A stretch of 64,000 nucleotides of DNA from an uncultured Caulobacterales bacterium (GCA_964513675.1 CAZEOD010000005.1:11061-75060); one strand, 5' to 3'. Shown: positions 34,946 to 63,344, numbered from the stretch's first letter. Notes: generated by a model from the letters alone, not told the origin. Program-made: numbers and translations.

Positions 34946-35911
34946 CTATTTTTTATCCGCTAAAGGGTGAGAGCTATAGACAAGCTCTTTCAAACGGTCA
35001 TCGAGGATATGGGTGTAAATCTGCGTGGTTGAAATATCAGAATGGCCGAGCAAGGTTTGAACACTGCGCAAATCAGCCCCGCGCGTAAGTAAATGAGTGG
35101 CAAAAGCATGGCGCAGCACATGGGGGGAGACCTTTGACGGCGGCAAACCCGCCTTAACCGCGATATCTTTTAGATCAATCGCGAACATTTCCCGCGTAAT
35201 ATGCCCTAATTTACCGCGAGACGGGAATAGAAAAACATCCGCGCGTTTACGGGCCTCAATCGTTTTCGGCAAGGTGTCTTGGCGAACGGCAATCCAAGCG
35301 CCTATCATTTCAAGTGCCGTTTCCGTAAGCGGCACAAGGCGTTCCTTTCCGCCTTTACCTTTAATCATCAGGCAGCCATTCCCGCGTTTAATTGCCTCTA
35401 TGCGCTTCGGCTCATCCATTTTTAATATCGCCGCCGCCCGCTTTAACGGCGCAAATTTAAGGGAGACAAGCTCACTAACCCGCAAACCACCGGCATAGAG
35501 AATTTCTAGCATACATTGCCGCCGGATGCCTTTCGCGCTGTTATCCTGCTCTGCTGTATCAAACAGGCGCTCAACGTCATCTTCGGATAAAACTTTCGGC
35601 AAAGGCCGCCCGCGTTTTGGGCCGCGTATATTAAAAGCAGGGTTCGCGTCCATATCCCCTTCAGACTGTAAAAATCCTAAAAACTGCTTCAAAGCCGAGA
35701 GTTTTCGCGCGGTTGTCGCCGCTGATAATCCAGACCCTGCCCAATTTGCAAGCACAGCTTCAATATCTGGCGGCGTCAGATTTTCTGCCGCTCCTTTGAT
35801 ATGTCCAAACCAATCCATTAGATCTCGGCGGTAAGCCGCCAGCGTATTATCAGATGCACCGCGTTCTGCGCTCATCATTTCTAAAAACCGGTCAATCTGA
35901 CTCTCTATCAT
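34946..35911 (-). CDS. xerD: Tyrosine recombinase XerD (chromosome dimer resolution)
   Basis: R...HxxR...Y catalytic pattern (LRHAFATHLL, LGHSDISTTQIYTH). There are no flanking phage or IS genes, and the aroK-side context is conserved. Confidence 0.88.
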   Translation of the reverse strand: MIESQIDRFLEMMSAERGASDNTLAAYRRDLMDWFGHIKGAAENLTPPDIEAVLANWAGSGLSAATTARKLSALKQFLGFLQSEGDMDANPAFNIRGPKRGRPLPKVLSEDDVERLFDTAEQDNSAKGIRRQCMLEILYAGGLRVSELVSLKFAPLKRAAAILKMDEPKRIEAIKRGNGCLMIKGKGGKERLVPLTETALEMIGAWIAVRQDTLPKTIEARKRADVFLFPSRGKLGHITREMFAIDLKDIAVKAGLPPSKVSPHVLRHAFATHLLTRGADLRSVQTLLGHSDISTTQIYTHILDDRLKELVYSSHPLADKK

Positions 35912-37539
35912 TACTCGGCAACAGCCTGTGCGGGAACACGGGAAAGAAAATCATAGGCCGCTAATTCGCCCGCTTCACGGGCTAATCCAGCGTCCGACAG
36001 GGCCGAAACATAGCTATAAATTTCCAGTTCTGATAAATCAGTCACCTCTCGAGAGCCAATATCATGAGCAATCATCATTAGAACATGTGCCCGCGCACCC
36101 GATTTTGCGGCGCTATTTAATTGCGCAAGACGCGCAGGATTTATAGCATCTGAGGCCTTATACTCATTGAAAACATTAAAGGTCGTTTCAGACATCTGCG
36201 CCCCAAGGCCGAGGCCAATAAACGCATCGCGCCGTGCATTGCGCCGCGTATCACCTTCGCCCGTTAGCCTCGTTTCGATATCGAGCCCTAATGGCCCGAG
36301 TAAAAACCCATTGCCAAGCGCATCGGAGGCAAGCGCAATGCGTCCCGCCAACGGCTCATTCGGATCAAGCGCTTGATAAATCCCGCGAAGCGTTGATAAA
36401 TCACCGCGCCGCAGCGCTGCCCATGTAAAGCGGCGGGCATCTAATTGAGCTTGATCTTCGGCGCTAACAAAGCTCAGAGCTTCACCCAAAAGCTGCGTCA
36501 TTTGCGGCACAAAACCAACTGTTTCGGACAGATTTAACAGCGCTGCAACAGCTTGGGACGCCGCTTGAGGGTCACTATAATTAACCGCCAAATTATAAAG
36601 CTGCGCGGTTGATTTCGCCTGCGTGTCAGGGTCTTGCAACCCTGCCAAAGCCGTATCAATATCAAAACTCGCCCCGCCCGCGAGGTCATCCGCATCAAAT
36701 AAAAGCGATGACATAATGGATGTCATATCTTGCGGCGTGAGGCGGTTTTGCGTTTTAAACATTGCGGCCAAACGCTCATTTGGCCGCTTATCCGTATTAC
36801 GCGTCATCGCAAGATAGTCATTCACCGACACCGCCTTATCAGGGGCCATCAAGGCGCTGAGCCTATCCAACAGCGGGTCTCCTGCGGCTATATTTTTCGG
36901 TGGATTTTTGCGAAGGCCAAGCACGGCATCTGATAAGGCGATGAAGTCGGGATTAATGTCATCGCGCTCTCGCATCAAATTCAGCGTTAATTCTGCGGCC
37001 GCCCCTTCATCGCGGCTGATGTGGCATATAATCCGCATCTGCATCCAAAACGGCGCGCTGCGGTTATCAATTTCGCGGTCAGATTCGCGGCAGGCTGCCT
37101 CTTGATCGCCAGAGGCCAAGGCCAGTTGCGTTCGAAAACTTGCCTCTCTTTGTAGCGGGTTTTGCGGATCAGATAAACTCTTCAGCGCTGTATAATCTTG
37201 CAATCGGAGCTTGGCTTGCGTTTTCACCCTTAAGTAATTTTGCCGCGCATCCTCATCACCCTCTGGCGGTACGCCTGCTGATAATAAAACACGGCGCATA
37301 AACGCTTTAGGAAGCTCTGAAAGCTGAGCGAAATTAACGCTCTCTATGGCTTGGCTGGCCTGCGCGGCGGAAACGCCTTGCCACAGCGCGGGATCAAGCC
37401 CGCCATTGCTCGGGTTAAGGGGTTCAGAATCATAGCGCTGCGCGGCGCCAAGTTGACCAATATCGACCTGCGCAGAAACAGGCAAAACCGCACAAAACGG
37501 CATAAGACCAAAACAAGCAGATAATAAAGCACGGCGCAT
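35911..37539 (-). CDS. Secreted protein of unknown function (about 540 aa, Ala/Leu-rich, probably helical repeat)
   Basis: Signal peptide MRRALLSACFGLMPFCAVLPVSAQ. A TAATG overlap joins it to xerD. No recognisable catalytic motif. Confidence 0.6.
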   Translation of the reverse strand: MRRALLSACFGLMPFCAVLPVSAQVDIGQLGAAQRYDSEPLNPSNGGLDPALWQGVSAAQASQAIESVNFAQLSELPKAFMRRVLLSAGVPPEGDEDARQNYLRVKTQAKLRLQDYTALKSLSDPQNPLQREASFRTQLALASGDQEAACRESDREIDNRSAPFWMQMRIICHISRDEGAAAELTLNLMRERDDINPDFIALSDAVLGLRKNPPKNIAAGDPLLDRLSALMAPDKAVSVNDYLAMTRNTDKRPNERLAAMFKTQNRLTPQDMTSIMSSLLFDADDLAGGASFDIDTALAGLQDPDTQAKSTAQLYNLAVNYSDPQAASQAVAALLNLSETVGFVPQMTQLLGEALSFVSAEDQAQLDARRFTWAALRRGDLSTLRGIYQALDPNEPLAGRIALASDALGNGFLLGPLGLDIETRLTGEGDTRRNARRDAFIGLGLGAQMSETTFNVFNEYKASDAINPARLAQLNSAAKSGARAHVLMMIAHDIGSREVTDLSELEIYSYVSALSDAGLAREAGELAAYDFLSRVPAQAVAE

Positions 37540-37543
37540 GATC

Positions 37544-37684
37544 TTATGTCCCCGGATCAATCGGTAAAGTCACTGTAACATCCGTTTGGTCTGCATGTTC
37601 AGCCCCGCCTTGCGACATTAACCAAAAATATACACCGCATAACAGAAGACATAAAACGCCAAAGGCGAGCAATAACTTTTTCAT
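37544..37684 (-). CDS. Candidate 46-aa single-TM small protein, below the ORF-track length cutoff
   Basis: Hand translation gives MKKLLLAFGVLCLLLCGVYFWLMSQGGAEHADQTDVTVTLPIDPGT. A GAGGG SD lies 6 nt upstream of the ATG. The stop is 4 nt before the next gene's ATG. Confidence 0.4.
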   Translation of the reverse strand: MKKLLLAFGVLCLLLCGVYFWLMSQGGAEHADQTDVTVTLPIDPGT

Positions 37685-51921: not shown

Positions 51922-54474
51922 TTAATTTTCGCAGCGAATACCATCTTTGCTCTCTTCTTTCAGTCGAATTTCGGACAGCCCAACGCTTGTTCCAGCAGGC
52001 GCCTGAAGGGAGAAGGCCTGTTTAAGATCGGCCATAACCGCACCAGCCCCGTCAAAACATTTCAGAGATATCCGTGTCTCACTCCATTCAGGTGTTAAAG
52101 TCACGGGGCGGAATGTTCCGCAGGCCCCTGTTTCAGGACAGCCAACCGCTACGCTCACATCGCCTGATCCATCAATTAATTTACTCATGAAGGAAAGCTC
52201 CATCGCGCCATTTGTTTCGCGCTGATAATCATGACCATAACGCGAAGAGATCGAGAGAATATTTTTCGCCTGTTTGAAGTCAACCCGCAGGCCGTCTTCC
52301 TGGGCTGTATGATCGTAACCGCCTAAGCGAAGACCCGCATTATTAAAGGGCATGGCTTCGATATTTGTGCCATTAACCGCCAAGCGCCAAGGCTGCGGAC
52401 TTGCGCCTTTCTCAAAGAACACGCCTTTTTGACCGCTTACGCCGCCAACGATGCCGCTATCTTCGGAAAGCTCAGCAATAGGCTTTTTATCGCCATAGCT
52501 AAGTCCGTAACCGAGCTTAAACAAAGGCTCATAATCGGCATGATGTGGATTTAGCTTGGTTTGCGTCGCAAGTTTTGGCCATGAAAAAGAGAGCCGGCCT
52601 GTGAAATCATAATCAGGATTTGTCTGGAATAATAAATCAGACACACCGCCGCCTTCTGTTCCCGGAAGGAAAGCCGCAATAAAAGCATCCGAGACATTCA
52701 TTTCAGGGTTCGTCCAGAGCGGCCGGCCCGATAAAAAGACAGAGACAACGGGAATATCCGCATCTTTAAAAGCTTTTAGATTTTGCGGATCAAAATCATT
52801 CGGCGTAAAATCAACATTTTCGCGGTCGCCTTGGAACTCCGCATAAGGGTCTTCGCCGTAAATCGCAATAACAGCATCTGTACCCGCCGGAACCGCCGCG
52901 CCTTCGAGATCAAATGTCACGCGCCCGCCTGCGGCAGTGACCGTGTCCTTGATCGCAGATAAAATAGACTCGCCATTTGGAAACTCATCATTCGTATGAT
53001 TTCCGCCCTGCCAAGACAGCGTCCACCCGCCGGCCATTTTCGCAATATTTTCCGCGCCTTTACCAACAACATGAATATTCTTGCCGGCAGCTAAGGGTAA
53101 GGTTTGATTGTTATTTTTCAGCAATACCATAGATTTACGCACAGATTCGCGCGCAACATCACGATGCGCTTTCGAGCCGAGTAATTCCGTCTTACCCGAG
53201 AATGCACGCTCACTTGGCTTTGGCTTTTCGAAAATACCAGAGTTAATTTTCACCCGTAATATACGGCGCACCGCATCATCAAGGCGCTCCATAGGAATAA
53301 CACCTGATTTCGCATGACCCAATAGAGACTCATATAATCCCTTCCAGCTATCGGGGGCCATATACATATCAAGACCCGCGTTCAGAGCTTGCGGGCAATC
53401 AGTGGCCGTACAGCCCGGTATTAAGGCATGACCATTCCAGTCGCCGACAACGAAGCCTTGAAAATTCATCCGGCCCTTAAGAACATCGGTTAAAAGCTCT
53501 TTTTGGCCATGCATAGGCTGGCCTTTCCATGACGAGAAACTTGCCATCACAGATTGCGCCCCGTCAGCAACCGCCGTCAAGTAACCGGCCAAGTGAATAT
53601 CACGTAGCTCGGCCTCTGTGACCTTGGCGTCACCTTGGTCAACACCGTTTTCAGTCCCGCCGTCCCCAAGGAAATGTTTCGCGCTTGAGATTACTTTTCC
53701 ATCGGCCATGAAACCATCGGTTCCTTTTTCGCCTTGCAGACCGCGAACAATCACGCCGCCGTAAGACTCGACAATCTCAGGGGCCTCGGAGAAGCCTTCA
53801 TATGCGCGTCCCCAGCGGTCATTTTGCGGAACCGCCAAAGTCGGGGCAAAGGTCCAGTCGTGCCCTGATACGCTTAGCTCCGTTGCCGTCACTTCTGCGA
53901 TACGTTTCATGAGGTCAGGATCATTGGCTGCGCCTAGTCCAATATTATGCGGAAAGACAACAGCGCCCGTCAGATTGGCATGGCCGTGAACGGCATCAAT
54001 GCCCCAAACCATGGGAATGGCAATCTCGACACCTTCAGGATCAATTGACGCTGCGAAATATTCATCAGCCGCTTCAATCCATGCATCCGCAGCCGCATAG
54101 GCCAAATCGCCCGGCGCAGAATTACCGCCGCTCAAAACAGAGCCTAATCTATATTGCTTAACCTCTTCGGGCGTCACAGCCCCCGTATCAGCCTGTATAA
54201 CTTGACCAATTTTTTGCTCAAGCGTCATTTTGGCGAGCATATCATCAATCCGCGCTTCAACCGCAGCGTCAAGCGGCGCGGTGCGCACGATTGGCCATGC
54301 CTTTGGATTAATGAGCGCTTTAGTTGCGGCTTGCGGCGCAGCCGCGCTAGCAGCGGCGACATCATCGCTCGCGACATCTTTTTCGAGATCACTAGATGCG
54401 CCGCTACACCCTGCAACAAGCGCAGTTGTAGACAATAAAATCAAGGTGCGTTTTAGCTCTGAGGTCTTCATCAT
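51922..54474 (-). CDS. Periplasmic/lipoprotein GH3 beta-glucosidase (ExoP/BglX-like exo-beta-glucanase, 850 aa)
   Basis: Lipobox LVAGC, GH3 N-terminal domain motifs (GIDAVHG, KHFLGDGGT) and the nucleophile context FVVGDWNG. A C-terminal extension domain is present. Confidence 0.88.
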   Translation of the reverse strand: MMKTSELKRTLILLSTTALVAGCSGASSDLEKDVASDDVAAASAAAPQAATKALINPKAWPIVRTAPLDAAVEARIDDMLAKMTLEQKIGQVIQADTGAVTPEEVKQYRLGSVLSGGNSAPGDLAYAAADAWIEAADEYFAASIDPEGVEIAIPMVWGIDAVHGHANLTGAVVFPHNIGLGAANDPDLMKRIAEVTATELSVSGHDWTFAPTLAVPQNDRWGRAYEGFSEAPEIVESYGGVIVRGLQGEKGTDGFMADGKVISSAKHFLGDGGTENGVDQGDAKVTEAELRDIHLAGYLTAVADGAQSVMASFSSWKGQPMHGQKELLTDVLKGRMNFQGFVVGDWNGHALIPGCTATDCPQALNAGLDMYMAPDSWKGLYESLLGHAKSGVIPMERLDDAVRRILRVKINSGIFEKPKPSERAFSGKTELLGSKAHRDVARESVRKSMVLLKNNNQTLPLAAGKNIHVVGKGAENIAKMAGGWTLSWQGGNHTNDEFPNGESILSAIKDTVTAAGGRVTFDLEGAAVPAGTDAVIAIYGEDPYAEFQGDRENVDFTPNDFDPQNLKAFKDADIPVVSVFLSGRPLWTNPEMNVSDAFIAAFLPGTEGGGVSDLLFQTNPDYDFTGRLSFSWPKLATQTKLNPHHADYEPLFKLGYGLSYGDKKPIAELSEDSGIVGGVSGQKGVFFEKGASPQPWRLAVNGTNIEAMPFNNAGLRLGGYDHTAQEDGLRVDFKQAKNILSISSRYGHDYQRETNGAMELSFMSKLIDGSGDVSVAVGCPETGACGTFRPVTLTPEWSETRISLKCFDGAGAVMADLKQAFSLQAPAGTSVGLSEIRLKEESKDGIRCEN

Positions 54475-54618: not shown

Positions 54619-55629
54619 ATGATTAATCGACGCCACGTCTTAGCCGGGGCCGCCCTTGCGCTGCCATCTTGTCACAAATCGCCGGCCAGCACAGCCGCTA
54701 CGAATCCAGCGCTTGAGGCTTTCTCTCCGCGGTTTTTCGATTTCATCGGAAAAAGCGCGTCCCTAGAGGTTCTAGGCTCTGGTTATGGCTGGTCAGAAGG
54801 CCCGGCATGGGACAAAGCCCGCGGCCAACTTTACTTCACAGACGTTCCCGGAAACACGGCTTATGTTTGGAAAGAGGGCCAAGGCGTTGAGGTATTTCTC
54901 TCTCCGTCTGGCGCCATCGTTGAAGGCTTTCGCGAACCCGGAGCAAATGGACTATTTTACAGCCGCAACGGCCAGTTGATTCTGTGTAATCATGGCAAAC
55001 GCGGCATCGAATCTCTTAATATTGACAGCAAAGCCCGTACCCTTCTGACAATGAGCTATAAAAATAAAGCTTACAACTCACCGAATGATGTCGTTGAGGC
55101 CAGCACGGGTGATCTTTATTTTACCGACCCGCCTTATGGCCTTGAAGGGCTAGACGATTCGCCCCTTAAAGAGCAGGCGCATAACGGCGTTTATCACCTC
55201 AGCAAAAGCGGCGCTGTTAAGCTGATGATCGCAGATTTAACATTTCCCAACGGCGTGGCCTTATCGCCTGATGAACGCTGGCTCTATGTCGCGCAATCAG
55301 ATCCTAAAGCGATGCATATTTACAGACTAGACCTCACAGACCCCAAGGCTGAAAAAGAGCTATTGGTTGATCTTGCGCCTTTTTCAGGGCCAGACCTACC
55401 GGGACTGCCGGACGGCATGGTTATTGACCAAAAAGGCTATCTTTTCGCAACAGGCCCCGGCGGCGTGTTTGTTATCTCGCCAAAGGGTGATGTCTTAGGC
55501 CGCATTAAAACCGGCAAAGGCAGCGCGAATTGTACCTTTGGAGAAGACGGCTCAACATTATTTATTACCAATCATGACCGGCTCGTAAAAATCCCGACTC
55601 TAACGCGGGGCCTCGCATGGGGATCATAA
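54619..55629 (+). CDS. SMP-30/gluconolactonase/LRE family protein, exported
   Basis: GGGGA SD and an N-terminal RRHVLAGAALALPSC (Tat-like lipoprotein signal). Six-bladed propeller motifs are present (EGPAWD, PNDVV, PDGMVID). Confidence 0.85.
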   Translation: MINRRHVLAGAALALPSCHKSPASTAATNPALEAFSPRFFDFIGKSASLEVLGSGYGWSEGPAWDKARGQLYFTDVPGNTAYVWKEGQGVEVFLSPSGAIVEGFREPGANGLFYSRNGQLILCNHGKRGIESLNIDSKARTLLTMSYKNKAYNSPNDVVEASTGDLYFTDPPYGLEGLDDSPLKEQAHNGVYHLSKSGAVKLMIADLTFPNGVALSPDERWLYVAQSDPKAMHIYRLDLTDPKAEKELLVDLAPFSGPDLPGLPDGMVIDQKGYLFATGPGGVFVISPKGDVLGRIKTGKGSANCTFGEDGSTLFITNHDRLVKIPTLTRGLAWGS

Positions 55630-56984
55630 TTGAGTACAGAGCCATATGGGCTACGCTTATAAGCCTCGTTTTATTGCTAGCCTTAATATTACGTTTTAAA
55701 TCCAATGCCTTTATCACGCTGTTGGGCTGCGCCATTTTAGCAGCCCTCTTGGCAGGAATGGATCCTGAAACCGCCTTTAAGACGGTGCAAAACGGCATGG
55801 GCGGAACGCTCGGATTTATTGCCGCCGTTATAGGCCTTGGCGCAATCTTCGGCGCAATAATGGAGCAAAGCGGCGCCATACTCGTCTTGGCAGCCCGCGT
55901 TGATAGCGTCAAAGGGGACGGCCCCAAATCTATGGCCGCAGGCCTCATGGGCTTAATCGCCGCAATCCCGGTGTTTTTTGATGTCGCTTTAATTATTCTT
56001 TTGCCGTTTATCATGAAGCTTGCACAAAAAGCGGGGAAAAAGCCCCTCTTCTTTGGCCTCCCGCTTTGCGCAGGCCTCGCCATTGGTCACGCCTTTATTC
56101 CGCCGACCCCCGGCCCTATCGCGATTGCAGAGTTAATCGGCGCTAATCTCGGCCATGTGATTCTTATGGGCAGTTTGATTAGTGTGATTTGTTTAATTAT
56201 TTCTGGGCCTATTTTGACGGTTTGGCTTGATAATACGGGGCGGCTTCCCGGCATTGTGCAAGGGCCCGCCAAGGCCGGCTTTGCCGCCGAGGTCAGTGAC
56301 ATCGCCGCGAAACCGATATCATTTACGCTTGCCTTGATTGTGATGCTATTGCCAATAATCCTGATTATGGCCGCGACGATTGGTGATTTAACCCTAGCAG
56401 ATAGTCCGTTTAAGACGGGATTGGCCATTATAGGTCACCCTTTCACAGCTTTGATTATCGCCTGCCTCGCAAGTTGGGTTTTGCTTAAACCCAAAACGGA
56501 GACTGAACGGAGCGCGATGCGCGAAACATTATCGCGCGCCTTTGAACCCACCGCCGCCGTTATACTTGTTACAGGCGCAGGCGGGGCCTTTAAACAAGTC
56601 CTTGTTGATACTGGCGCAGGTAAAGATATTGCGCAATATTTCATCAATGCTGGATTAACGCCCGTCTTGCTCGCCTTTGCAATGGCGCTTTTACTTCGTG
56701 TCGTACAGGGCAGCGCAACAGTTGCCATGATTACGGCCGCAGGATTAATTGCGCCGCTTATTAGCGTCATAGCCCCGAACCCGTGGCAACTCGCCGTGCT
56801 GACAACCGCGATTGCCGCCGGCGCAACAGGCTTCTCACATGTCAATGATTCAGGGTTTTGGCTCGTTGGCCGCCTCTTCAAACTGACAGAAGCCGAGACT
56901 CTCAAAAGCTGGACATTATTAACAGGTGTGATTTCCTTAACTGGCCTTTTAGTCTGTTTCTGCCTATATGGCGCCTTAGGATAA
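55617..56984 (+). CDS. GntP-family gluconate:H+ symporter
   Basis: 455-aa polytopic protein with GntP-type stretches (PPTPGP, VNDSGFW). Confidence 0.85.
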   Translation: MGIIIEYRAIWATLISLVLLLALILRFKSNAFITLLGCAILAALLAGMDPETAFKTVQNGMGGTLGFIAAVIGLGAIFGAIMEQSGAILVLAARVDSVKGDGPKSMAAGLMGLIAAIPVFFDVALIILLPFIMKLAQKAGKKPLFFGLPLCAGLAIGHAFIPPTPGPIAIAELIGANLGHVILMGSLISVICLIISGPILTVWLDNTGRLPGIVQGPAKAGFAAEVSDIAAKPISFTLALIVMLLPIILIMAATIGDLTLADSPFKTGLAIIGHPFTALIIACLASWVLLKPKTETERSAMRETLSRAFEPTAAVILVTGAGGAFKQVLVDTGAGKDIAQYFINAGLTPVLLAFAMALLLRVVQGSATVAMITAAGLIAPLISVIAPNPWQLAVLTTAIAAGATGFSHVNDSGFWLVGRLFKLTEAETLKSWTLLTGVISLTGLLVCFCLYGALG

Positions 56985-56986
56985 AT

Positions 56987-58375
56987 ATGCGCCAAAGGGG
57001 CCAGCCATTAGAGAGGGGGAAATCATTGAATAAGCTTCAAAAGCTATTCGGCTACGGCATTGGTGATTTTGGCCTCAATATTTATTGGAAGACCATATCG
57101 CTCTATCTTGTCTATTGGTACACAACGATTGTTGGCCTTGATCCGCGTATTGCCGGAACTTTATTTTTCATTGGTATGACATGGGATGCGATTTCTGATC
57201 CTATCATCGCCTCTCTATCTGAGCGCGTGACATCACGTTTCGGAACCTATCGGCCCTTTTTGCTCTACGGCTCTGTTGCGCTCGGCTTTGCTTTTGTTCT
57301 GCAATTTTGGGTGCCGCCCTTCACAGGCCCGCGGCTTATTTTATATCTTATCATCGCCTGTGTTATATTTCGCAGCGCTTATACCATTGTCGCGATTCCC
57401 TATGCGGCCATGGCATCGCGCTTGACCTATGACAGTATTGAGCGTGCCGATTATTCAGGCGCGCGCATGTTTTGTGCCTTTTTAGGCCTCTTGCTAATTT
57501 CGATGTTTTTACCGCCTCTCGTCGAGGTTTTCACCACCCGAACAGGCTCCGAACAAAAAGCCTTTCAATATGCCGCTGCCATTGGCGCGATTGTGGCAAG
57601 CTTGGCTATATTACTCTGTTTTGCCATGACGAAAGAGCAGCCTCTTCCGCCGCAAACGGTTCGATCAAAAAAAGTATGGTCGGGAATTACGGAAAATATT
57701 CGCACCAATCGCTCTTTGCGAATTTTAATTTGCCTCATTATTTTAAATACAGTTGCGGGGGCCAGCCTTAGCCTCACCCTCGTATTTTTCATTGATGCGA
57801 ACCAAGCTAAATTTGCCTCCAAAGAAGCCGTCTTAACCGCCTATGCGATTGGCACATTAATATTTGTACCGATCTGGACTTTCTGTGTGCACCGCTATGG
57901 CCGCAAGAAAATATGGACAATAATTGTATTAATTTACATTGCTGTTGCGCTTCATATGCTAGTGTTTTCATCTGTAACAATCAGCGGCATACCCATTCAA
58001 ATTATAATTTTCGGCGCCTGCGGCGGAGGCTTAGCTATGATTTTATGGGCGTTTATTCCCGACTGCGTCGAATTTGGACAAATTGATAGCGGTTACAGAT
58101 CCGAAGCCGGCGTGTTTGGATCTGTGATGGTCACGCAGAAATTATCAGGCGCTTTAACGGGATTATTAGTCGGATTTATGCTTGCCGCCTTTGGCGTCTC
58201 ACAGGCGAGCGACGGCTTTATTGTGAGTTCAGAAAAAATGACGCTTTTTCTCGCGATTGTTCCAGCCCTTTTATTAGCGCTCTCCCTTATTCCGGTGTTC
58301 CAATTACCATTGGAACGCGCCGCCCATTCAGATATTATAGATAAACTCCAAAACAAGGACGTCACACATGGTTAA
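56987..58375 (+). CDS. GPH-family (MelB-like) glycoside/oligosaccharide:cation symporter
   Basis: N-terminal FGYGIGDFGLNIYW and DAISDP motifs, with about 12 TM. The ATG at 56987 lies 2 nt after the gntP stop, so the ORF-track N-terminal extension is rejected. Confidence 0.8.
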   Translation: MRQRGQPLERGKSLNKLQKLFGYGIGDFGLNIYWKTISLYLVYWYTTIVGLDPRIAGTLFFIGMTWDAISDPIIASLSERVTSRFGTYRPFLLYGSVALGFAFVLQFWVPPFTGPRLILYLIIACVIFRSAYTIVAIPYAAMASRLTYDSIERADYSGARMFCAFLGLLLISMFLPPLVEVFTTRTGSEQKAFQYAAAIGAIVASLAILLCFAMTKEQPLPPQTVRSKKVWSGITENIRTNRSLRILICLIILNTVAGASLSLTLVFFIDANQAKFASKEAVLTAYAIGTLIFVPIWTFCVHRYGRKKIWTIIVLIYIAVALHMLVFSSVTISGIPIQIIIFGACGGGLAMILWAFIPDCVEFGQIDSGYRSEAGVFGSVMVTQKLSGALTGLLVGFMLAAFGVSQASDGFIVSSEKMTLFLAIVPALLLALSLIPVFQLPLERAAHSDIIDKLQNKDVTHG

Positions 58376-59402
58376 AATGGTTGATGTTGCAGAACACGCA
58401 GGCGTTTCAGTGAAAACAGTCTCCCGTGTTTTAAACAATGAAGCACATGTGCAAGATAAAGTTAGAAAACGTGTCTTTGAGTCGGTTGAAACATTGGGTT
58501 ATGTCCCCAGTGCCTCGGCGCGAAATCTGCGAAGCCGCCGAACCTATGGACTGCACTTTATTACCCACTCGACGCGAAGTAACTTCTTAAACGCCATTCA
58601 ATCCGGCGCTTTAATGGCGAGTCAAAAACGGGGCTATAGTTTGTTCTGGAATTATCTCGACCCCAATATTACAAAAGATCCCGCCAAGTTGAAAAACTGG
58701 TGTGATAGATTGATTAAAGACAGCCGGCCCGACGGCATTATCTTGACGCCGCCCTATACTAATTATGAAACGGTCAATGCCTGTTTAAATGCACATAAAG
58801 TGCCGATTGTCCGCATTGGGCCGAATAAAATCATGGATGATAATATCACCGTGAAGATTGATGACCGTCTGGCTGCACGCGATGCAACACAGCATCTTAT
58901 CGACCTTGGCCATGAGCGTATTGCCTTCATCCGCGGCGTTGAGAACCAACACGCGACACATGAACGCTATAAGGGGTATTGCGATGCGCTGGAACGAGCT
59001 GGAATTTCGAACGATGACAGCCTTGTTTTTCCGGGCACTTTCAACTTTGCCAGCGGGATGACCGCCGGCGAGAAAATTGTAAATATGGAAAACCGCCCGA
59101 CCGCTGTTTTTGCCGCAAATGACGATATGGCGGCCGGCGTTATTGTTGCCGCGCATAAAAATAATATCAAAATTCCCGAGGAAATTTCAATTATTGGCTT
59201 TGATGATTCTGAAATGGCAGAACGTATTTGGCCGGCTTTAACAACAATTCGCCAGCCGCGCGTTGAATATGGCGAACGGTCTACTGAAATATTGATTTCA
59301 ATGGCGGGATCAACTGGGCGAGGCCGAGCCGCCTCAAAGGCGACCGAGCTCATGGATTATGACTTAATCCTACGTGATTCCACTTCGGCGATTAAAAAGT
59401 AA
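58368..59402 (+). CDS. LacI-family transcriptional regulator
   Basis: N-terminal HTH MVDVAEHAGVSVKTVSRVLNN and a periplasmic-binding-protein-like effector domain. It overlaps the GPH gene end by 8 nt. Confidence 0.92.
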   Translation: MVKMVDVAEHAGVSVKTVSRVLNNEAHVQDKVRKRVFESVETLGYVPSASARNLRSRRTYGLHFITHSTRSNFLNAIQSGALMASQKRGYSLFWNYLDPNITKDPAKLKNWCDRLIKDSRPDGIILTPPYTNYETVNACLNAHKVPIVRIGPNKIMDDNITVKIDDRLAARDATQHLIDLGHERIAFIRGVENQHATHERYKGYCDALERAGISNDDSLVFPGTFNFASGMTAGEKIVNMENRPTAVFAANDDMAAGVIVAAHKNNIKIPEEISIIGFDDSEMAERIWPALTTIRQPRVEYGERSTEILISMAGSTGRGRAASKATELMDYDLILRDSTSAIKK

Positions 59403-59436
59403 ATATGAAAGCCCAAACAGGGCCAGTGATAACAGG

Positions 59437-60330
59437 CTAGAAACGCATCGCTTTCACGGCCTCATAGCTTGTCGAAACCGCATTTAAAAATGGCTTTTGC
59501 GGGCTATCATGCTCTGCAATGAAATATTCCATTCCAGAGATGTCATTCAGCGCAAAATAGCTTTCAAACGGGATAATACCTTCGCCAACATTGACCATAA
59601 GATCTTTGGTGATGCGGCCATAATCAGCGCCTTTGAAATCCGCGCGGCTTGGGTTCATGTCTTTAATGTGGCAAAGCTTAAAGCGGCCAGGATATTGCCG
59701 GAAGAGCGCTGGAATATCGACATCGACAAGATAAGCCCAAAACATATCAAGCTCCATCACAAGGTTTTCAGGCGCGCAATCACCCATAATAATATCCATA
59801 GCGATTGTTCCATCGCCCAGATCTTCAAACTCAAACTGATGATTGTGATAAGCGAGCTGAATACCGCTATCTCTAAGCTGCGCGCCGGCTGTGTTCATTA
59901 AGGCCGCATGTGATTTCCAATCCGCATAGCTGCGCTGGTCATCCGCAATATAAGGCACAACCGCATATTTACAGCCGAGCGTTTCGCATGTTTTTACAAG
60001 CCCATTGAGATCACCGCGAAGGTTATCAAGGGAAATATGCGTGATCGGGGCTGGCAGGGCGACCTCATCAAGCATCGCCCGAAGATCTGCCGGCGCGGTG
60101 TTAGCAAAATTACGGCCATTCAGCTCAACATAATCATAACCCGCCGCCTTGATAAGCTTAAGAGTTCCCATCGGATCAGGCTCAAATATTTCGCGCAAGG
60201 TATAGGTTTGCAAGCCAACTTTTGAAATCTGGCGGGCCTCGGGTTTTAAAGCCGCAGGGGCCTTACAGCCAACCGTAACGAGCGCCGAACTTGCCGCTGC
60301 ATTTTGCAGAAAAGATCGTCTTGAAAACAT
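59437..60330 (-). CDS. Exported xylose-isomerase-like TIM-barrel protein (sugar phosphate isomerase/epimerase family)
   Basis: Twin-arginine signal SRRSFLQNAAASSALVTVGC with a lipobox, and an AP-endonuclease-2/XylA-like TIM barrel length. A TAATG overlap joins it to the GMC gene. Confidence 0.75.
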   Translation of the reverse strand: MFSRRSFLQNAAASSALVTVGCKAPAALKPEARQISKVGLQTYTLREIFEPDPMGTLKLIKAAGYDYVELNGRNFANTAPADLRAMLDEVALPAPITHISLDNLRGDLNGLVKTCETLGCKYAVVPYIADDQRSYADWKSHAALMNTAGAQLRDSGIQLAYHNHQFEFEDLGDGTIAMDIIMGDCAPENLVMELDMFWAYLVDVDIPALFRQYPGRFKLCHIKDMNPSRADFKGADYGRITKDLMVNVGEGIIPFESYFALNDISGMEYFIAEHDSPQKPFLNAVSTSYEAVKAMRF

Positions 60331-62030
60331 TATAGAACTCCTTGCTCTAAGAGGTCAGCCGCGTGATTAGCCGCGCGCGCCGAGAACGCCATATAAGTTA
60401 GAGATGGATTTTGGCAGCCCGCAGAGGTCATGAAAGACCCATCGGAAATAAACAGGTTCGGAACATCCCAGCTTTGATTAAATTTATTCAAAACAGAGGT
60501 TGCAGGGTCATGGCCCATACGCGCCGTGCCCATTTCATGAATCCCGTTACCCGGCACGCCAATGATTGGATTCTCAGGATCATCTGCATGCTCAATTTCA
60601 ATGCCTGCAGCCGTCATCATATCAATCGCATCGCGCGTGGCTTGCTGCATAAGCTTTTGCTCATTATTACGCATTTTCGCATCCAAGATCGGGACAGGAA
60701 AGCCCCATTTATCTGTTCTGGTAGGGTGGAGACGAATTTGATTACGAAAATCAGGTAAAATCTCAGCAAAGGCCGTAATGGAAAAATACCAGGGGCCGGG
60801 CGTTCTATTTCCGGCTTTAAAAGCTTTGCCGATACCGGCGTTATTTTTAGATGATTCCCACCCTAAGCGGTAAATACGGCCCTGATATCCAAAGCCGCGG
60901 CTATAACCAGGGCCCTCTTCTAAATGGTTTCGATATCGCGGGATGTAAAATCCATTCGGGCGGCGGCCATAATGATATTTATCTTCCATGCCCGGCATAA
61001 TGCCGCGCGCCCGTGCACCCGAAATATGATCCATAAGATTATGCGCTAATTGACCAGAGGAATTAGCAAGCCCGTTTGGAAAGGCCGCATTTGCCGAGTT
61101 TTTAAGAATAATCGTCGACGGAATTGTTCCCGCATTAAGGAACACAATTTTAGCCGTATATGTCTTGGCCTCACCGGTTTTTATATTCACTGTTTTAACG
61201 CCGGATATCCGTTTTTTACCCGCATCATAATCCAATTTAAGAACGGCTGTGTCCGGTATCAATGTCAGATTGCCCGTGCGCTCCGCCGCTGGAAGCGTTG
61301 CCGCGACTGAGCTGAAATAAGCCCCAAAAATACAGCCTCTATGGCACAGATTACGCGATTGGCACTGTCCGCGCCCTAATTCTAATTGTTCTTCCGTGGG
61401 CTGTGTCAGATTGGCGACACGCCCGGGAATAACTTTGCGAGTCGGGAAAGCGGCTTCGACTTTTTCTTTAAAAACCTCTTCCGCACATGTCAGATCATGC
61501 GGCGGCTGAAAAACACCATCGGGCAGAATATCCAGCCCCTCTTGAGAGCCAGAAATACCCGCAAAGCGCTCAACATGGTCATACCACGGCGCGAGGTCTT
61601 TATAGCGGACGGGCCAATCAATCCCGATATTTTCTTTTTTGTTAGCCGCAAAATCAATCTCGGACAAACGATAGCTTTGACGCGCCCACATCAAGGATCG
61701 TCCGCCTTTGTGATAGCCGCGCCGCCATAAATAATCTTGACCTTCGGGCACTTCATATGGGTTTTCATTATCATCGACCCAAAACTGTTTCGAACCTTGG
61801 TCAAAGGCGTAAACAGTCGATTGAATCGGATGGTTTTTCAAATCTTCCGCTGTCTTACGGCCTAGATTTTGCATATCCCACGGGTCAATATGATCGCCGT
61901 AATCCTCGGCAGGGTCTATGTCACGGCCGCGCTCAAGCACAGCTACTTTCAAACCGCGCTCTGTCAGCTCTTTCGCGACCCATCCACCGGACATGCCGGA
62001 CCCAACAATGATTGCATCAAAATCAGCCAT
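60330..62030 (-). CDS. GMC-family FAD oxidoreductase (gluconate 2-dehydrogenase flavoprotein-like), no signal peptide of its own
   Basis: DAIIVGSGMSGG Rossmann motif and a C-terminal GMC motif IHEMGTARMG. The ATG at 62030 lies 2 nt after the small-subunit stop; a GTG at 62045 is the alternative. Confidence 0.85.
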   Translation of the reverse strand: MADFDAIIVGSGMSGGWVAKELTERGLKVAVLERGRDIDPAEDYGDHIDPWDMQNLGRKTAEDLKNHPIQSTVYAFDQGSKQFWVDDNENPYEVPEGQDYLWRRGYHKGGRSLMWARQSYRLSEIDFAANKKENIGIDWPVRYKDLAPWYDHVERFAGISGSQEGLDILPDGVFQPPHDLTCAEEVFKEKVEAAFPTRKVIPGRVANLTQPTEEQLELGRGQCQSRNLCHRGCIFGAYFSSVAATLPAAERTGNLTLIPDTAVLKLDYDAGKKRISGVKTVNIKTGEAKTYTAKIVFLNAGTIPSTIILKNSANAAFPNGLANSSGQLAHNLMDHISGARARGIMPGMEDKYHYGRRPNGFYIPRYRNHLEEGPGYSRGFGYQGRIYRLGWESSKNNAGIGKAFKAGNRTPGPWYFSITAFAEILPDFRNQIRLHPTRTDKWGFPVPILDAKMRNNEQKLMQQATRDAIDMMTAAGIEIEHADDPENPIIGVPGNGIHEMGTARMGHDPATSVLNKFNQSWDVPNLFISDGSFMTSAGCQNPSLTYMAFSARAANHAADLLEQGVL

Positions 62031-62032
62031 AT

Positions 62033-62611
62033 CTATGTCGCCCACGTCCGTCCAATTTCAGTCAAATCCACACAGCCTTTCCAATCACCGGGGACAGGCT
62101 CATATCGAAGCTCCTCCGATGCGCCCGGCTCTGACATATAATAGGCCGTCGCGACTGTCGATTTCATATCGGTGTAAAACCCGTCTTTTGTCTTTCCGCT
62201 AAAAACATCAAGATCATATGCGGCTAAAATATCATGCTGCTCTGCGCTATTTTGCTCAGCAAATACGCCGCCTGATTTCGCATCTAATTTTGCAGCAAGC
62301 GCGTTTAATCCTTTGCGCCAATAGCCCTTATAATTATCATCGCCCCACTCAGAAACCAGGCTAGCAATTACGGCGGGCACTCCGGCCTCAACCGCGCCGG
62401 CGGTCTCTGTTTGCGGAATAATCGTTTCAGCAACGGCACTCAGAAAAGCAAATTCGCTGGCCGTGAAAAATGCGGCGCTGCTCGCGTCAATAGCGGGTAA
62501 ATCTTTAGCGCCAGTCTCGCGGCTCGCCTTGCATGACGATAGCGCGCCCACCGCAGAAATAGCCAAGAGCGCTTTAATCGCCTCTCGCTTTGTAACATGT
62601 GCCTTACGCAT
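62033..62611 (-). CDS. Gluconate 2-dehydrogenase subunit-3-family small subunit with an export signal
   Basis: 192 aa. The N-terminal KREAIKALLAISAVGALSSC is a Tat-like lipoprotein signal. It is the first gene of the three-gene operon. Confidence 0.7.
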   Translation of the reverse strand: MRKAHVTKREAIKALLAISAVGALSSCKASRETGAKDLPAIDASSAAFFTASEFAFLSAVAETIIPQTETAGAVEAGVPAVIASLVSEWGDDNYKGYWRKGLNALAAKLDAKSGGVFAEQNSAEQHDILAAYDLDVFSGKTKDGFYTDMKSTVATAYYMSEPGASEELRYEPVPGDWKGCVDLTEIGRTWAT

Positions 62612-62658
62612 AGATATTACACTCCTTTGACCCGGTTCATATATAGTGTCGTTTGCTA

Positions 62659-62692
62659 GGCATAATGCCTATAGCTATCTGGCATAATGCCT
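62659..62692. repeat. Two exact copies of GGCATAATGCCT spaced 22 bp centre-to-centre
   Basis: Copies at 62659-62670 and 62681-62692. Each is itself near-palindromic (GGCAT-AA-TGCC). They lie 48-80 nt upstream of the small-subunit start. Confidence 0.5.
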
Positions 62693-62798
62693 GCGATACG
62701 CAAGGCCACCAAAGGCATTTACACGCCTATGAAACGAAAACTCTATGAACGGATATTCCCAAAATACTTTTATAGTTATCTAATTTACATAGCTGAAT

Positions 62799-62812
62799 TG
62801 ACATCGTTGTCA
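62799..62812. promoter_or_regulatory. Operator variant TGACATCGTTGTCA (13/14) between the GMC operon and the cupin gene
   Basis: One mismatch relative to the 44668 palindrome. It lies 50 nt upstream of the cupin ATG. Confidence 0.55.
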
Positions 62813-62861
62813 ATCTTGATAGTCTAAAATTATATTCACAATTTAAAATTAAAGAGCCCCC

Positions 62862-63344
62862 ATGTATAGACATAAGATGCAAAGATATAAGTTTAAAATA
62901 TCCTGCCTTATATTCGCAGCCTTTGCTATGGCCCTTTCTGCGTGCGAAGGTCATCACGATCATGCCGCACCGCAAGAGGACGCCGCTTTAACGTCTGGTC
63001 AATTAAAGACGGGCGTTGTTTCGGAGCAAACCGCGAAAACAAGCGTAGAATCGTGGGGTAAGTTTTTGAGTTATTATGAAGGCCGCTCTGACCATGTTTC
63101 GGATATTTTAACAGGCGTCGCCGTGATTAATCCCGGCGAAGAAATTCATCCGCCGCATAAACATCCCGAAGAAGAATTTCTAATGGTTATAGAGGGCAGC
63201 GGAACATGGAGCATAAAGGGTATTAATAGCCCCGCCTTAGCCGGTGATATTTTATTTGCCGTGCCGGGTGAACTCCACGGGCTTAAAAATACAGGCAATA
63301 CCCCATTGAAATTTGTTGTGTTTAAATATAACCCAAAACCTTAA
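62862..63344 (+). CDS. Exported cupin-domain protein
   Basis: Lipoprotein-type signal (AMALSAC) and cupin motifs GEEIHPPHKHPEEEF ... LHGLKNTG. Confidence 0.75.
   Translation: MYRHKMQRYKFKISCLIFAAFAMALSACEGHHDHAAPQEDAALTSGQLKTGVVSEQTAKTSVESWGKFLSYYEGRSDHVSDILTGVAVINPGEEIHPPHKHPEEEFLMVIEGSGTWSIKGINSPALAGDILFAVPGELHGLKNTGNTPLKFVVFKYNPKP

Follow-up and report, generated by a model that had tools for sequence, protein, structure and literature searches.

A putative periplasmic module for cleaving beta-glucosides by oxidation and elimination in an uncultured marine Caulobacterales bacterium

The stretch analysed here, called the window below, is 64,000 nucleotides of DNA from an uncultured Caulobacterales bacterium (GCA_964513675.1 CAZEOD010000005.1:11061-75060), a marine Hyphomonadaceae-like organism of the Hellea or Algimonas type. 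Between positions 59437 and 62611 three co-directional open reading frames (ORFs) were found on the minus strand, encoding in order a small subunit, a flavoprotein of the GMC family that binds flavin adenine dinucleotide (FAD), and a TIM-barrel protein, all within a locus that also holds a TonB-dependent receptor and a GH3 enzyme. In a preliminary description of the window this operon was taken for a periplasmic sugar or glycoside dehydrogenase module of unclear regiochemistry, in which the flavoprotein would be carried across the membrane by a partner with a twin-arginine translocation (Tat) signal. The genes, and the motifs within them, are as follows.

62033..62611, minus strand: small hitch-hiker subunit of the LacC, gamma-subunit or "TAT-pathway signal protein" type, 192 amino acids (PF13618)
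62531..62611, minus strand: predicted signal peptide of the small subunit, with a T-K-R-E-A-I-K Tat-like motif (KR variant) followed by the lipobox LSS/C27 (from homologue motif counts)
60330..62030, minus strand: catalytic subunit, a GMC-family FAD dehydrogenase of 566 amino acids counted from the ATG, predicted glycoside 3-dehydrogenase (GMC_oxred_N and GMC_oxred_C)
61986..62003, minus strand: FAD-binding GSGMSG, residues 10-15 of the GMC protein
61332..61364, minus strand: Cys-rich motif C223-x5-C229-x3-C233 (CQSRNLCHRGC) of the GMC protein, predicted 3Fe-4S ligands (from alignment to the Cys cluster of fructose dehydrogenase, FDH)
59437..60330, minus strand: xylose-isomerase-like TIM barrel of 297 amino acids, predicted metal-dependent 3-keto-beta-D-glucoside 1,2-lyase, or beta-eliminase (PF01261)
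60265..60330, minus strand: N-terminus of the TIM barrel, a predicted Tat lipoprotein signal made up of SRRSFLQ and the lipobox TVG/C22 (from homologue motif counts)
59512..60126, minus strand: TIM-barrel active-site residues E69, H98, H162, H164, E193, D195, W198, H221 and E273 (from alignment with AtOGE and AL1)

The gene order, the gap of 2 nucleotides and the TAATG overlap given in the preliminary description were borne out by the ORF coordinates and the junction sequences. At the first junction, GACATAGATATGG, the TAG stop codon of the small-subunit gene is followed after 2 nucleotides by the ATG of the GMC gene, and at the second, CTATAATGTT, the GMC and TIM-barrel genes overlap by 1 nucleotide in TAATG. 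An alternative GTG start of the GMC gene lies upstream of the ATG at 62045; MADFD is the start in most homologues. AAGGAG precedes the first gene, as its ribosome-binding site, and also the third. In Pfam the small subunit was assigned to Gluconate_2-dh3 (PF13618, E 9e-27), the flavoprotein to GMC_oxred_N and GMC_oxred_C, and the TIM barrel to the xylose-isomerase-like family AP_endonuc_2 (E 2e-14).

The GMC protein has no signal peptide, as had been claimed for it: its FAD-binding motif is reached already at residue 10, where it also starts in 97 of 120 homologues. In the glucose dehydrogenase BcGDH a 3Fe-4S cluster is bound by Cys212, Cys218 and Cys222, and a small Tat hitch-hiker subunit exports the catalytic subunit (PMC6719666). 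The Cys motif of the window protein has the spacing of these three residues, is present in GlycDH of Rhizobium sp. GIN611 as well, and recurs among the 120 homologues, for which a complete count was not made; C223, C229 and C233 are thus predicted to be the ligands of a 3Fe-4S cluster. The best matches in the PDB were the large subunit of Gluconobacter FDH and the alpha subunit of Burkholderia BcGDH, over the whole length and with E of about 1e-35 (2e-34 for BcGDH). Most weight lies on the comparison with GlycDH: identity to FDH is 27%, compared with 48% over 560 amino acids, the full length, to GlycDH, whose sequence was taken from Supplementary Table 6 of PMC10628242, and 50-51% to the GlycDH orthologues of Ketogulonicigenium, Xanthomonas sacchari and Paracoccus, which are themselves 73-75% identical to GlycDH. 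It was proven by nuclear magnetic resonance that GlycDH oxidises O- and C-glucosides at C3; the enzyme was co-expressed with its "TAT-pathway signal protein", and ferricyanide is a far better acceptor for it than O2 (PMC10628242). Over its full length the window protein is therefore nearer to an enzyme of proven C3 selectivity than to those that oxidise other positions. The words "unclear regiochemistry" overstated the uncertainty, and the system stands nearer to published work than was first assumed. The nearest genome representative carries a GMC protein with 81% identity to that of the window.

Signals for export were found on both partners of the flavoprotein. The small subunit begins with MRKAHVTKREAIKALLAISAVGALSSC, and the export signal noted earlier can be refined to a KR-type Tat motif with a lipobox. 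Among its homologues x-R-R-D-A-[IL]-K occurs in 109 of 120 and the lipobox in 118, while KR is seen in six of the 120, namely the window protein and its nearest relatives. The TIM barrel reads MFSRRSFLQ...TVGC at its N-terminus; the SRRSFLQ motif pointed out previously was found with RR in 103 of 120 homologues and with a lipobox in 113, and the signal is predicted to bring the protein to the compartment in which 3-keto-glycosides are formed. Both the small subunit and the TIM barrel are hence predicted to be Tat lipoproteins. The lack of a cytochrome c subunit likewise held when the window was searched, as no CxxCH ORF of 80-600 amino acids, the range used for c-type cytochrome candidates, was found anywhere in the 64 kb. 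As far as sequence can tell, the architecture first proposed, a Tat small subunit carrying a flavoprotein, a Tat TIM-barrel partner and no cytochrome c gene, still holds. The small subunit has 225 homologues, mostly from marine Hyphomonadaceae-like bacteria, and shares 28-33% identity with its counterparts beside the GlycDH orthologues of Ketogulonicigenium, Xanthomonas and Paracoccus. A phmmer search of the PDB with its sequence gave no match; its AlphaFold model has an all-helical core of moderate confidence, with a predicted local distance difference test (pLDDT) of 72.

When the sequence of the TIM barrel was compared with the PDB (phmmer), the matches were AL1 of Alistipes (8tcd, 8tcr, 8tcs; E 5e-22), AtOGE of Agrobacterium (8bvk; E 2e-18, full length) and BT1 (8tct; E 7e-14). 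Its AlphaFold model (pLDDT 91.8) was placed in the same way by Foldseek, with AL1 and BT1, titled "3-keto-beta-glucopyranoside-1,2-lyase" in the PDB, at ranks 1-4, AtOGE at ranks 7 and 9, and the hydratase AtHYD at rank 48; with AtHYD there is no BLAST similarity. The protein groups with AtOGE, AL1 and the Hymenobacter SPI2 lineage. At 26-29% identity it stands between AL1/BT1 and AtOGE, being a little closer to AL1 than to AtOGE (26% identity); AL1/BT1 and AtOGE are themselves only about 29% identical and share the same beta-elimination activity. The residues with roles described for these enzymes (PMC10628242; bioRxiv 10.1101/2024.03.25.586180) correspond as follows.

E69: Glu39 of AtOGE
H98: His66 of AtOGE, His103 of AL1
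H162: His132 of AtOGE, His178 of AL1
H164: His134 of AtOGE (catalytic), His180 of AL1
E193: Glu161 of AtOGE
D195: Asp163 of AtOGE, Asp211 of AL1
W198: Trp214 of AL1
H221: His189 of AtOGE, His237 of AL1
E273: Glu233 of AtOGE

In the multiple alignment all nine ligand and catalytic residues are retained in the window protein and are invariant in 35 homologues, and among them are the His, Asp, His and Glu that ligate the metal, the HNH-motif His responsible for catalysis, and a His and a Trp that bind the substrate. It was reported that AtOGE cleaves 3'-keto-cellobiose (kcat 51 per second) and not 3'-keto-maltose (PMC10628242), and that AL1 and BT1 take the beta anomer as substrate and also hydrate glucal, slowly (bioRxiv 10.1101/2024.03.25.586180). 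This beta preference fits the GH3 exo-beta-glucosidase that is encoded nearby. In Xanthomonas sacchari and Paracoccus the gene immediately before the GMC gene encodes a "TIM barrel protein"; this was considered as an orthologue and rejected, as it has no BLAST similarity to the window protein.

Related loci were collected by scanning species-representative genomes with the TIM-barrel alignment and were annotated with custom hidden Markov models (HMMs); 80 loci were obtained, 70 of them of Caulobacterales type. A GMC gene lies beside the TIM barrel in 66 of the 70, the remaining four being short contigs, and in 36 of the 70 the two genes overlap by 1 or 4 nucleotides. A pairing that recurs in this manner is not due to chance. 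The small subunit is visible in 53 of the 70, and 44 have a full operon consisting of a Gfo/Idh/MocA gene, a second TIM barrel of 350 amino acids, a major facilitator superfamily (MFS) carrier, the small subunit, one to four copies of the GMC gene and the TIM barrel. The 350-residue barrel of Hellea matches the 2-hydroxy-3-keto-glucal hydratase AtHYD (8ro4) over its full length with E 2e-173, and neither this hydratase nor the Gfo-family protein of the relatives has a signal peptide. By its predicted functions, the set found in the relatives is that of the Agrobacterium pathway (GlycDH, TAT protein, AtOGE, AtHYD, Gfo reductase), with another lyase lineage replacing AtOGE. The genomic association with enzymes of 3-keto-glycosides is thus made up of a lyase-type TIM barrel within the operon and of Gfo and AtHYD-type genes in 44 of 70 relatives. 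No DUF1080 partner was found in the window or in any of the 70 loci, and a search of the literature for marine or polysaccharide-locus studies of this pair of GMC protein and small subunit yielded nothing specific.

The ten loci from other phyla hold the lyase subfamily together with Gfo/Idh/MocA, DUF1080 and AtHYD-like genes and contain no GMC gene. Their gene set is an oxidise-eliminate-hydrate system of the type dependent on nicotinamide adenine dinucleotide (NAD), as in Bacteroides and Alistipes. In L081-L091 (Balneolales, Rhodothermales, Caldithrix, Gemmatimonadetes and others) the lyase homologues are 34-37% identical and have no GMC gene nearby; as they lie in GMC-free loci of NAD type, one lyase lineage serves both FAD-type and NAD-type oxidants. 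Plasmid clusters of Xanthomonas sacchari, Paracoccus, Ketogulonicigenium and Hymenobacter represent the GlycDH-type version. The GMC genes of Ketogulonicigenium, Xanthomonas sacchari and Paracoccus adjoin AtOGE orthologues (57-60% identical to AtOGE) as well as AtHYD-like and Gfo genes; DUF1080 was found in the clusters of Xanthomonas, Paracoccus and Hymenobacter, and a small c-type cytochrome in those of Xanthomonas and Hymenobacter.

Several further GMC genes came to light in these comparisons. In 29 of the 70 Caulobacterales-type loci (L019-L082) the GMC gene is present as two to four tandem paralogues with 54-60% identity among them, which sit behind one small Tat subunit and before one lyase gene (e.g. 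L006 10001-15090, Hellea balneolensis), and this arrangement suggests that one export subunit serves several dehydrogenases of differing substrate range. Plasmid pAlt76 of Alteromonas sp. 76-1 (L005 7435-9710) carries a small subunit paired with a GMC protein (45% identity to that of the window) amid rhamnosidase, GH88, sulfatase and BNR-repeat genes, and no TIM barrel adjoins the pair; dehydrogenases of this type may act on fragments of sulfated algal polysaccharides as well. GMC genes on plasmids of Rhizobium leguminosarum (32% identical) were considered as GlycDH and rejected, since they stand beside an ABC transporter and have no small subunit; they belong to a different, probably cytoplasmic subfamily.

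We consider it likely that the operon of the window is a periplasmic module that cleaves beta-glucosides by oxidation at C3 followed by elimination, and not by hydrolysis. This is the second of the two functions put forward in the preliminary description, a glycoside 3-dehydrogenase paired with an eliminase, and it is favoured because the GMC protein is 48% identical to C3-selective GlycDH and 27% to FDH, because the nearest solved relatives of the TIM barrel are AL1, BT1 and AtOGE with every catalytic residue kept, and because genes for an AtHYD-type hydratase and a Gfo/Idh/MocA protein join the operon in the relatives. Every feature of a hitch-hiker glycoside 3-dehydrogenase and of a 3-keto-beta-glucoside lyase that can be looked for in a sequence was found in the module. 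In the scheme that we infer, the GMC subunit would fold in the cytoplasm with its FAD and 3Fe-4S cluster and bind the small subunit, and both would be exported by Tat; lipidation of the small subunit after export would tether the complex to a membrane that faces the periplasm. There it would oxidise the C3 hydroxyl of the glucosyl residue at the non-reducing end of beta-glucosides, most plausibly oligosaccharides of the laminarin or cellodextrin type imported by the neighbouring TonB-dependent receptor, and electrons would pass from FAD to the 3Fe-4S cluster and from there to an acceptor that is not encoded at the locus and is probably a quinone or a c-type cytochrome of the periplasm. The co-translated, Tat-exported TIM-barrel lipoprotein would act as a 3-keto-beta-glucoside 1,2-lyase dependent on a divalent metal, which would hold the 3-keto group, while His164 would remove H2 so that the aglycone or the next sugar is expelled and 2-hydroxy-3-keto-glucal is left. 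In most relatives the MFS carrier would then import the glucal, a cytoplasmic AtHYD-type hydratase would convert it to 3-keto-glucose, and the Gfo/Idh/MocA reductase would return glucose. The window has no gene for the hydratase, the reductase or the MFS carrier, so these last steps would in its organism be encoded elsewhere or handled differently.

Downstream of the operon lies a convergent unit of four genes, encoding an exported gluconolactonase, GntP, a GPH-family symporter and a LacI regulator, and past it follow the GH3 exo-beta-glucosidase, GntK, DUF6445, four genes of the tryptophan-halogenase family and the TonB-dependent receptor. The lactonase and GntP genes occupy 54619-56984 on the plus strand; the best match of the lactonase in the PDB is 3dr2, the protein has an NRRHVL Tat-like motif and an LPSC lipobox of its own, and GntP and GntK each score above the NCBIfam cut-offs. 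Upstream and divergent is a cupin of 160 amino acids with a lipoprotein signal (LSAC; 62862-63344, plus strand), together with a sodium:solute symporter, the region continuing in L001 4812-6929. This cupin has no close solved relative, its best matches in the PDB being generic cupins (E 1e-7), and with a cupin HMM built from just the window and L012 sequences the pair of cupin and symporter was detected only in these two. Neither a Gfo nor a hydratase nor an MFS gene was found in the 64-kb window or in the 7 kb past its end, and an operon reduced in this way was otherwise seen only in L012 and L013 among the loci examined.

With these neighbours in view, the GMC complex might instead oxidise C1 of glucose or of beta-glucan oligosaccharides, like BcGDH or cellobiose dehydrogenase; the lactonase would open the lactone, GntP import the gluconate and GntK phosphorylate it, and the TIM barrel would be an accessory or unrelated. 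An exported gluconolactonase, GntP and GntK do occur at the locus, where no periplasmic glucose dehydrogenase is visible otherwise, and the C1 oxidiser BcGDH is a detectable homologue of the GMC protein (E 2e-34); the main support comes from the fact that a lactonase, GntP or both adjoin the operon in 29 of 70 relatives (L033-L069 included). We nevertheless regard this reading, the first of the two offered in the preliminary description, as unlikely, since the GMC protein is far closer to GlycDH than to FDH, since a translationally coupled TIM barrel with an intact active site of a 3-keto-glucoside lyase is left unexplained and without a role, and since a lactone route would not need the AtHYD-type hydratase and Gfo gene of the relatives; glucose dehydrogenases of other types could moreover be encoded outside the window. 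The same neighbours, and the same 29 relatives, underlie the idea that the reduced operon feeds the co-located route of exported lactonase, GntP and GntK from its own 3-dehydrogenase and lyase, 3-keto-glucose being turned into gluconolactone or gluconate without net redox change, perhaps by the divergent cupin lipoprotein. Such a conversion is conceivable because 3-keto-glucose, that is 2-hydroxy-3-keto-glucal plus water, is an isomer of gluconolactone, and if it took place oxidative glycoside cleavage would be tied directly to the Entner-Doudoroff pathway with no NAD(P)H spent and the adjacency of lactonase and GntP would be functional; we think it quite improbable. A gluconate 2-dehydrogenase of the classical type, or another dehydrogenase forming ketoaldonates, is highly improbable: the family name of PF13618 and the neighbouring gluconate transport genes are all that speak for it, and the earlier comparison with that enzyme went back solely to this Pfam name. 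The classical enzyme has three subunits including a multi-heme cytochrome c, and none of the three genes of the operon encodes a cytochrome; no genes for the use of 2-ketogluconate turned up in the window, GlycDH is the nearest relative that has been characterised, and the operon partners in the relatives are enzymes of the 3-keto-glucoside pathway.

A last alternative accepts the 3-dehydrogenase and doubts the lyase, making the TIM barrel a later glucal hydratase or a keto-sugar isomerase or epimerase, with the glycosidic bond broken spontaneously or by another enzyme. AL1 and BT1 do hydrate glucal slowly (bioRxiv 10.1101/2024.03.25.586180), the window has no dedicated hydratase, and xylose-isomerase-like barrels with the same metal ligands, found among the lower-ranked Foldseek matches, catalyse many isomerisations. 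It is nonetheless improbable in our view, as AtHYD came only at rank 48 in the fold search and has no BLAST similarity to the barrel, as the catalytic His of the HNH motif, W198 and H98 match the lyases, and as the relatives carry this barrel in addition to an AtHYD orthologue, so that the two are not redundant. Cleavage by C3 oxidation and elimination therefore remains the reading we prefer, and several observations weigh on the other side. The regiochemistry of a GMC protein is not guaranteed to be conserved at 48% identity, and the export prediction for the small subunit has to accommodate KR in place of RR. When the model of the small subunit was searched against the PDB with Foldseek for a resemblance to the gamma subunit of BcGDH or to its counterpart in FDH, there was no match with E < 1, a result that speaks neither for nor against such a resemblance. 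The absence of a c-type cytochrome candidate from the window counts here as well; clustering of the CxxCH ORFs over 92 sequences, the 80 related loci included, revealed no conserved cytochrome family near the operon, and the acceptor would therefore be encoded elsewhere. The genes of the window, with no hydratase, reductase or MFS carrier among them, leave the fate of the keto-glucal unexplained, and the conserved adjacency of lactonase and GntP, which the published 3-keto pathway does not account for, hints at a lactone-forming oxidation in the system.

Among the closest characterised systems is that of GlycDH with its "TAT-pathway signal protein", AtOGE, AtHYD and a Gfo reductase, described for Agrobacterium tumefaciens and Rhizobium sp. 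GIN611 (Bitter et al. 2023, PMC10628242; PDB 8BVK, 8RO4). Like GlycDH, the window GMC protein has the Cys motif and a small Tat subunit as partner; like AtOGE, the predicted lyase is a TIM barrel, and it keeps the active-site residues of that metal-dependent beta-eliminase; and the AtHYD-type hydratase and Gfo/Idh/MocA gene of this pathway are carried by the relatives of the window operon. Unlike AtOGE, the window lyase comes from a different TIM-barrel lineage (26% identical), and it has a predicted Tat lipoprotein signal whereas the AtOGE orthologues examined have signals of Sec type. The system also differs from that of GlycDH in that the small subunit is a predicted lipoprotein with KR, in that the window has none of the genes for the hydratase, reductase and transporter of the pathway, and in its marine Hyphomonadaceae-like host and locus with TonB receptor and GH3 enzyme. 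The lyases AL1 of Alistipes and BT1 (BT2156) of Bacteroides thetaiotaomicron (Nasseri et al., bioRxiv 10.1101/2024.03.25.586180; PDB 8TCD, 8TCR, 8TCS, 8TCT) match the TIM barrel best in both sequence and structure, and AL1 residues His103, His178, His180, Asp211, Trp214 and His237 are kept in it. AL1 has a predicted secretion signal, the window lyase is likewise predicted to be exported, and the logic of oxidising, eliminating and hydrating is shared. In the Alistipes and Bacteroides systems, however, oxidation is the task of a Gfo/Idh/MocA enzyme (AL3/BT3) that is exported by Tat, has NAD bound and depends on a keto-sugar for recycling, and there is a DUF1080 partner (alpha-lyase and hydratase), whereas the oxidant of the window is a respiratory-type dehydrogenase with FAD and a predicted Fe-S cluster and DUF1080 is missing from the window and all 70 loci.

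Within the order Caulobacterales, LacABC of Caulobacter crescentus (Arellano 2010) is a three-component periplasmic glycoside 3-dehydrogenase that is needed for growth on lactose, salicin and raffinose (PMC9007349, PMC8121099). The window enzyme, predicted to be a periplasmic glycoside 3-dehydrogenase too, is likened to it here by secondary descriptions and not by the LacA sequence; LacABC has a cytochrome c component, LacB, and DUF1080 proteins in its cluster, and the window has neither. Having no cytochrome, the module of the window is not a three-component enzyme of the LacABC type, nor is it a classical gluconate 2-dehydrogenase. BcGDH (6A2U, PMC6719666) and Gluconobacter FDH (7W2J) share with it a signal-less GMC subunit with the Cys cluster for 3Fe-4S and a small Tat subunit. 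They oxidise glucose at C1 and fructose at C5, respectively, have a cytochrome c subunit with three hemes, unlike the window, and reach only some 27% identity with the GMC protein of the window, in which Cys213 of BcGDH, the residue of the gamma-alpha disulfide, is replaced by Gln.

Since the chemistry and the enzyme families have already been published for Agrobacterium and gut Bacteroidales, what is gained here is a distribution and a set of variants and not a principle. The variant traits are the distinct lyase lineage, two exported proteins that are both predicted Tat lipoproteins, the KR motif, the reduced operon, the marine setting with TonB receptor and GH3 enzyme, and the conserved lactonase and GntP neighbours. 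If the proposed function is correct, cleavage of glycosides by oxidation and elimination would not be limited to the soil rhizobia and gut Bacteroidales in which it was worked out in 2020-2024, and would belong to the usual equipment of loci for beta-glucan utilisation in Hyphomonadaceae-like bacteria of the sea, near TonB-dependent receptors and GH3 glucosidases. The clade would then provide a third lineage of 3-keto-beta-glucoside lyase and a version of the pathway with two predicted exported lipoproteins and a respiratory-type dehydrogenase, and the two to four dehydrogenase paralogues that the relatives keep behind one export subunit would form a natural set for the study of substrate range. 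Surveys of marine glycan turnover that are based on CAZy would miss such a route.

The sequences that may govern expression of the operon lie on either side of it.

59410..59424, minus strand: terminator-like hairpin just past the stop codon of the TIM-barrel gene (from a consensus scan only)
58368..59402, plus strand: LacI-family regulator, last gene of the convergent lactonase-GntP-GPH-LacI unit (LacI and Peripla_BP_3 domains)
62612..62861, no strand assigned: space between the operon and the cupin gene, a divergent promoter region with two exact GGCATAATGCC palindromes and the AAGGAG before the small subunit

The LacI-family protein, a neighbour also found in L012, L013 and L014, is a candidate regulator of the locus. 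Exact copies of GGCATAATGCC were located at 62659-62669 and 62681-62691, 22 bp apart, and a third copy is inside the GMC gene at 60994-61004; the pair may be the operator of this adjacent regulator. As a motif of a wider regulon the palindrome GGCATNATGCC was rejected, because with one mismatch allowed it was counted 5 times in the window against 4.0 expected by chance. It is not enriched across the window, and what is suggestive is limited to the two exact promoter copies.

A lipobox Cys was observed in every exported enzyme of the locus, namely the GH3 enzyme (51922-54474), the lactonase (54619-55629), the lyase, the small subunit and the cupin (62862-63344), with S, H, K, K and E, respectively, as the +2 residues. 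As none of these is Asp, the whole set of enzymes may be tethered to a membrane, possibly the outer membrane near the TonB receptor.

Farther from the operon, a tyrosine recombinase of the phage-integrase family with an N-terminal SAM-like domain (34946-35911, minus strand) adjoins an unannotated ORF of 549 amino acids (35911-37560); it is probably a gene of the XerC/XerD type, unrelated to the operon. A PfkB kinase past the end of the window was considered as a part of the pathway and rejected, as it is ribokinase-like and stands beside a nucleoside hydrolase, and it probably belongs to a separate unit. Between 41334 and 51423, on both strands, lie the TonB-dependent receptor (1083 amino acids), the four tandem genes of the tryptophan-halogenase family, one of them truncated (372 amino acids), and DUF6445, and this block of receptor and halogenases recurs in the loci of several relatives (e.g. 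L015-L018).

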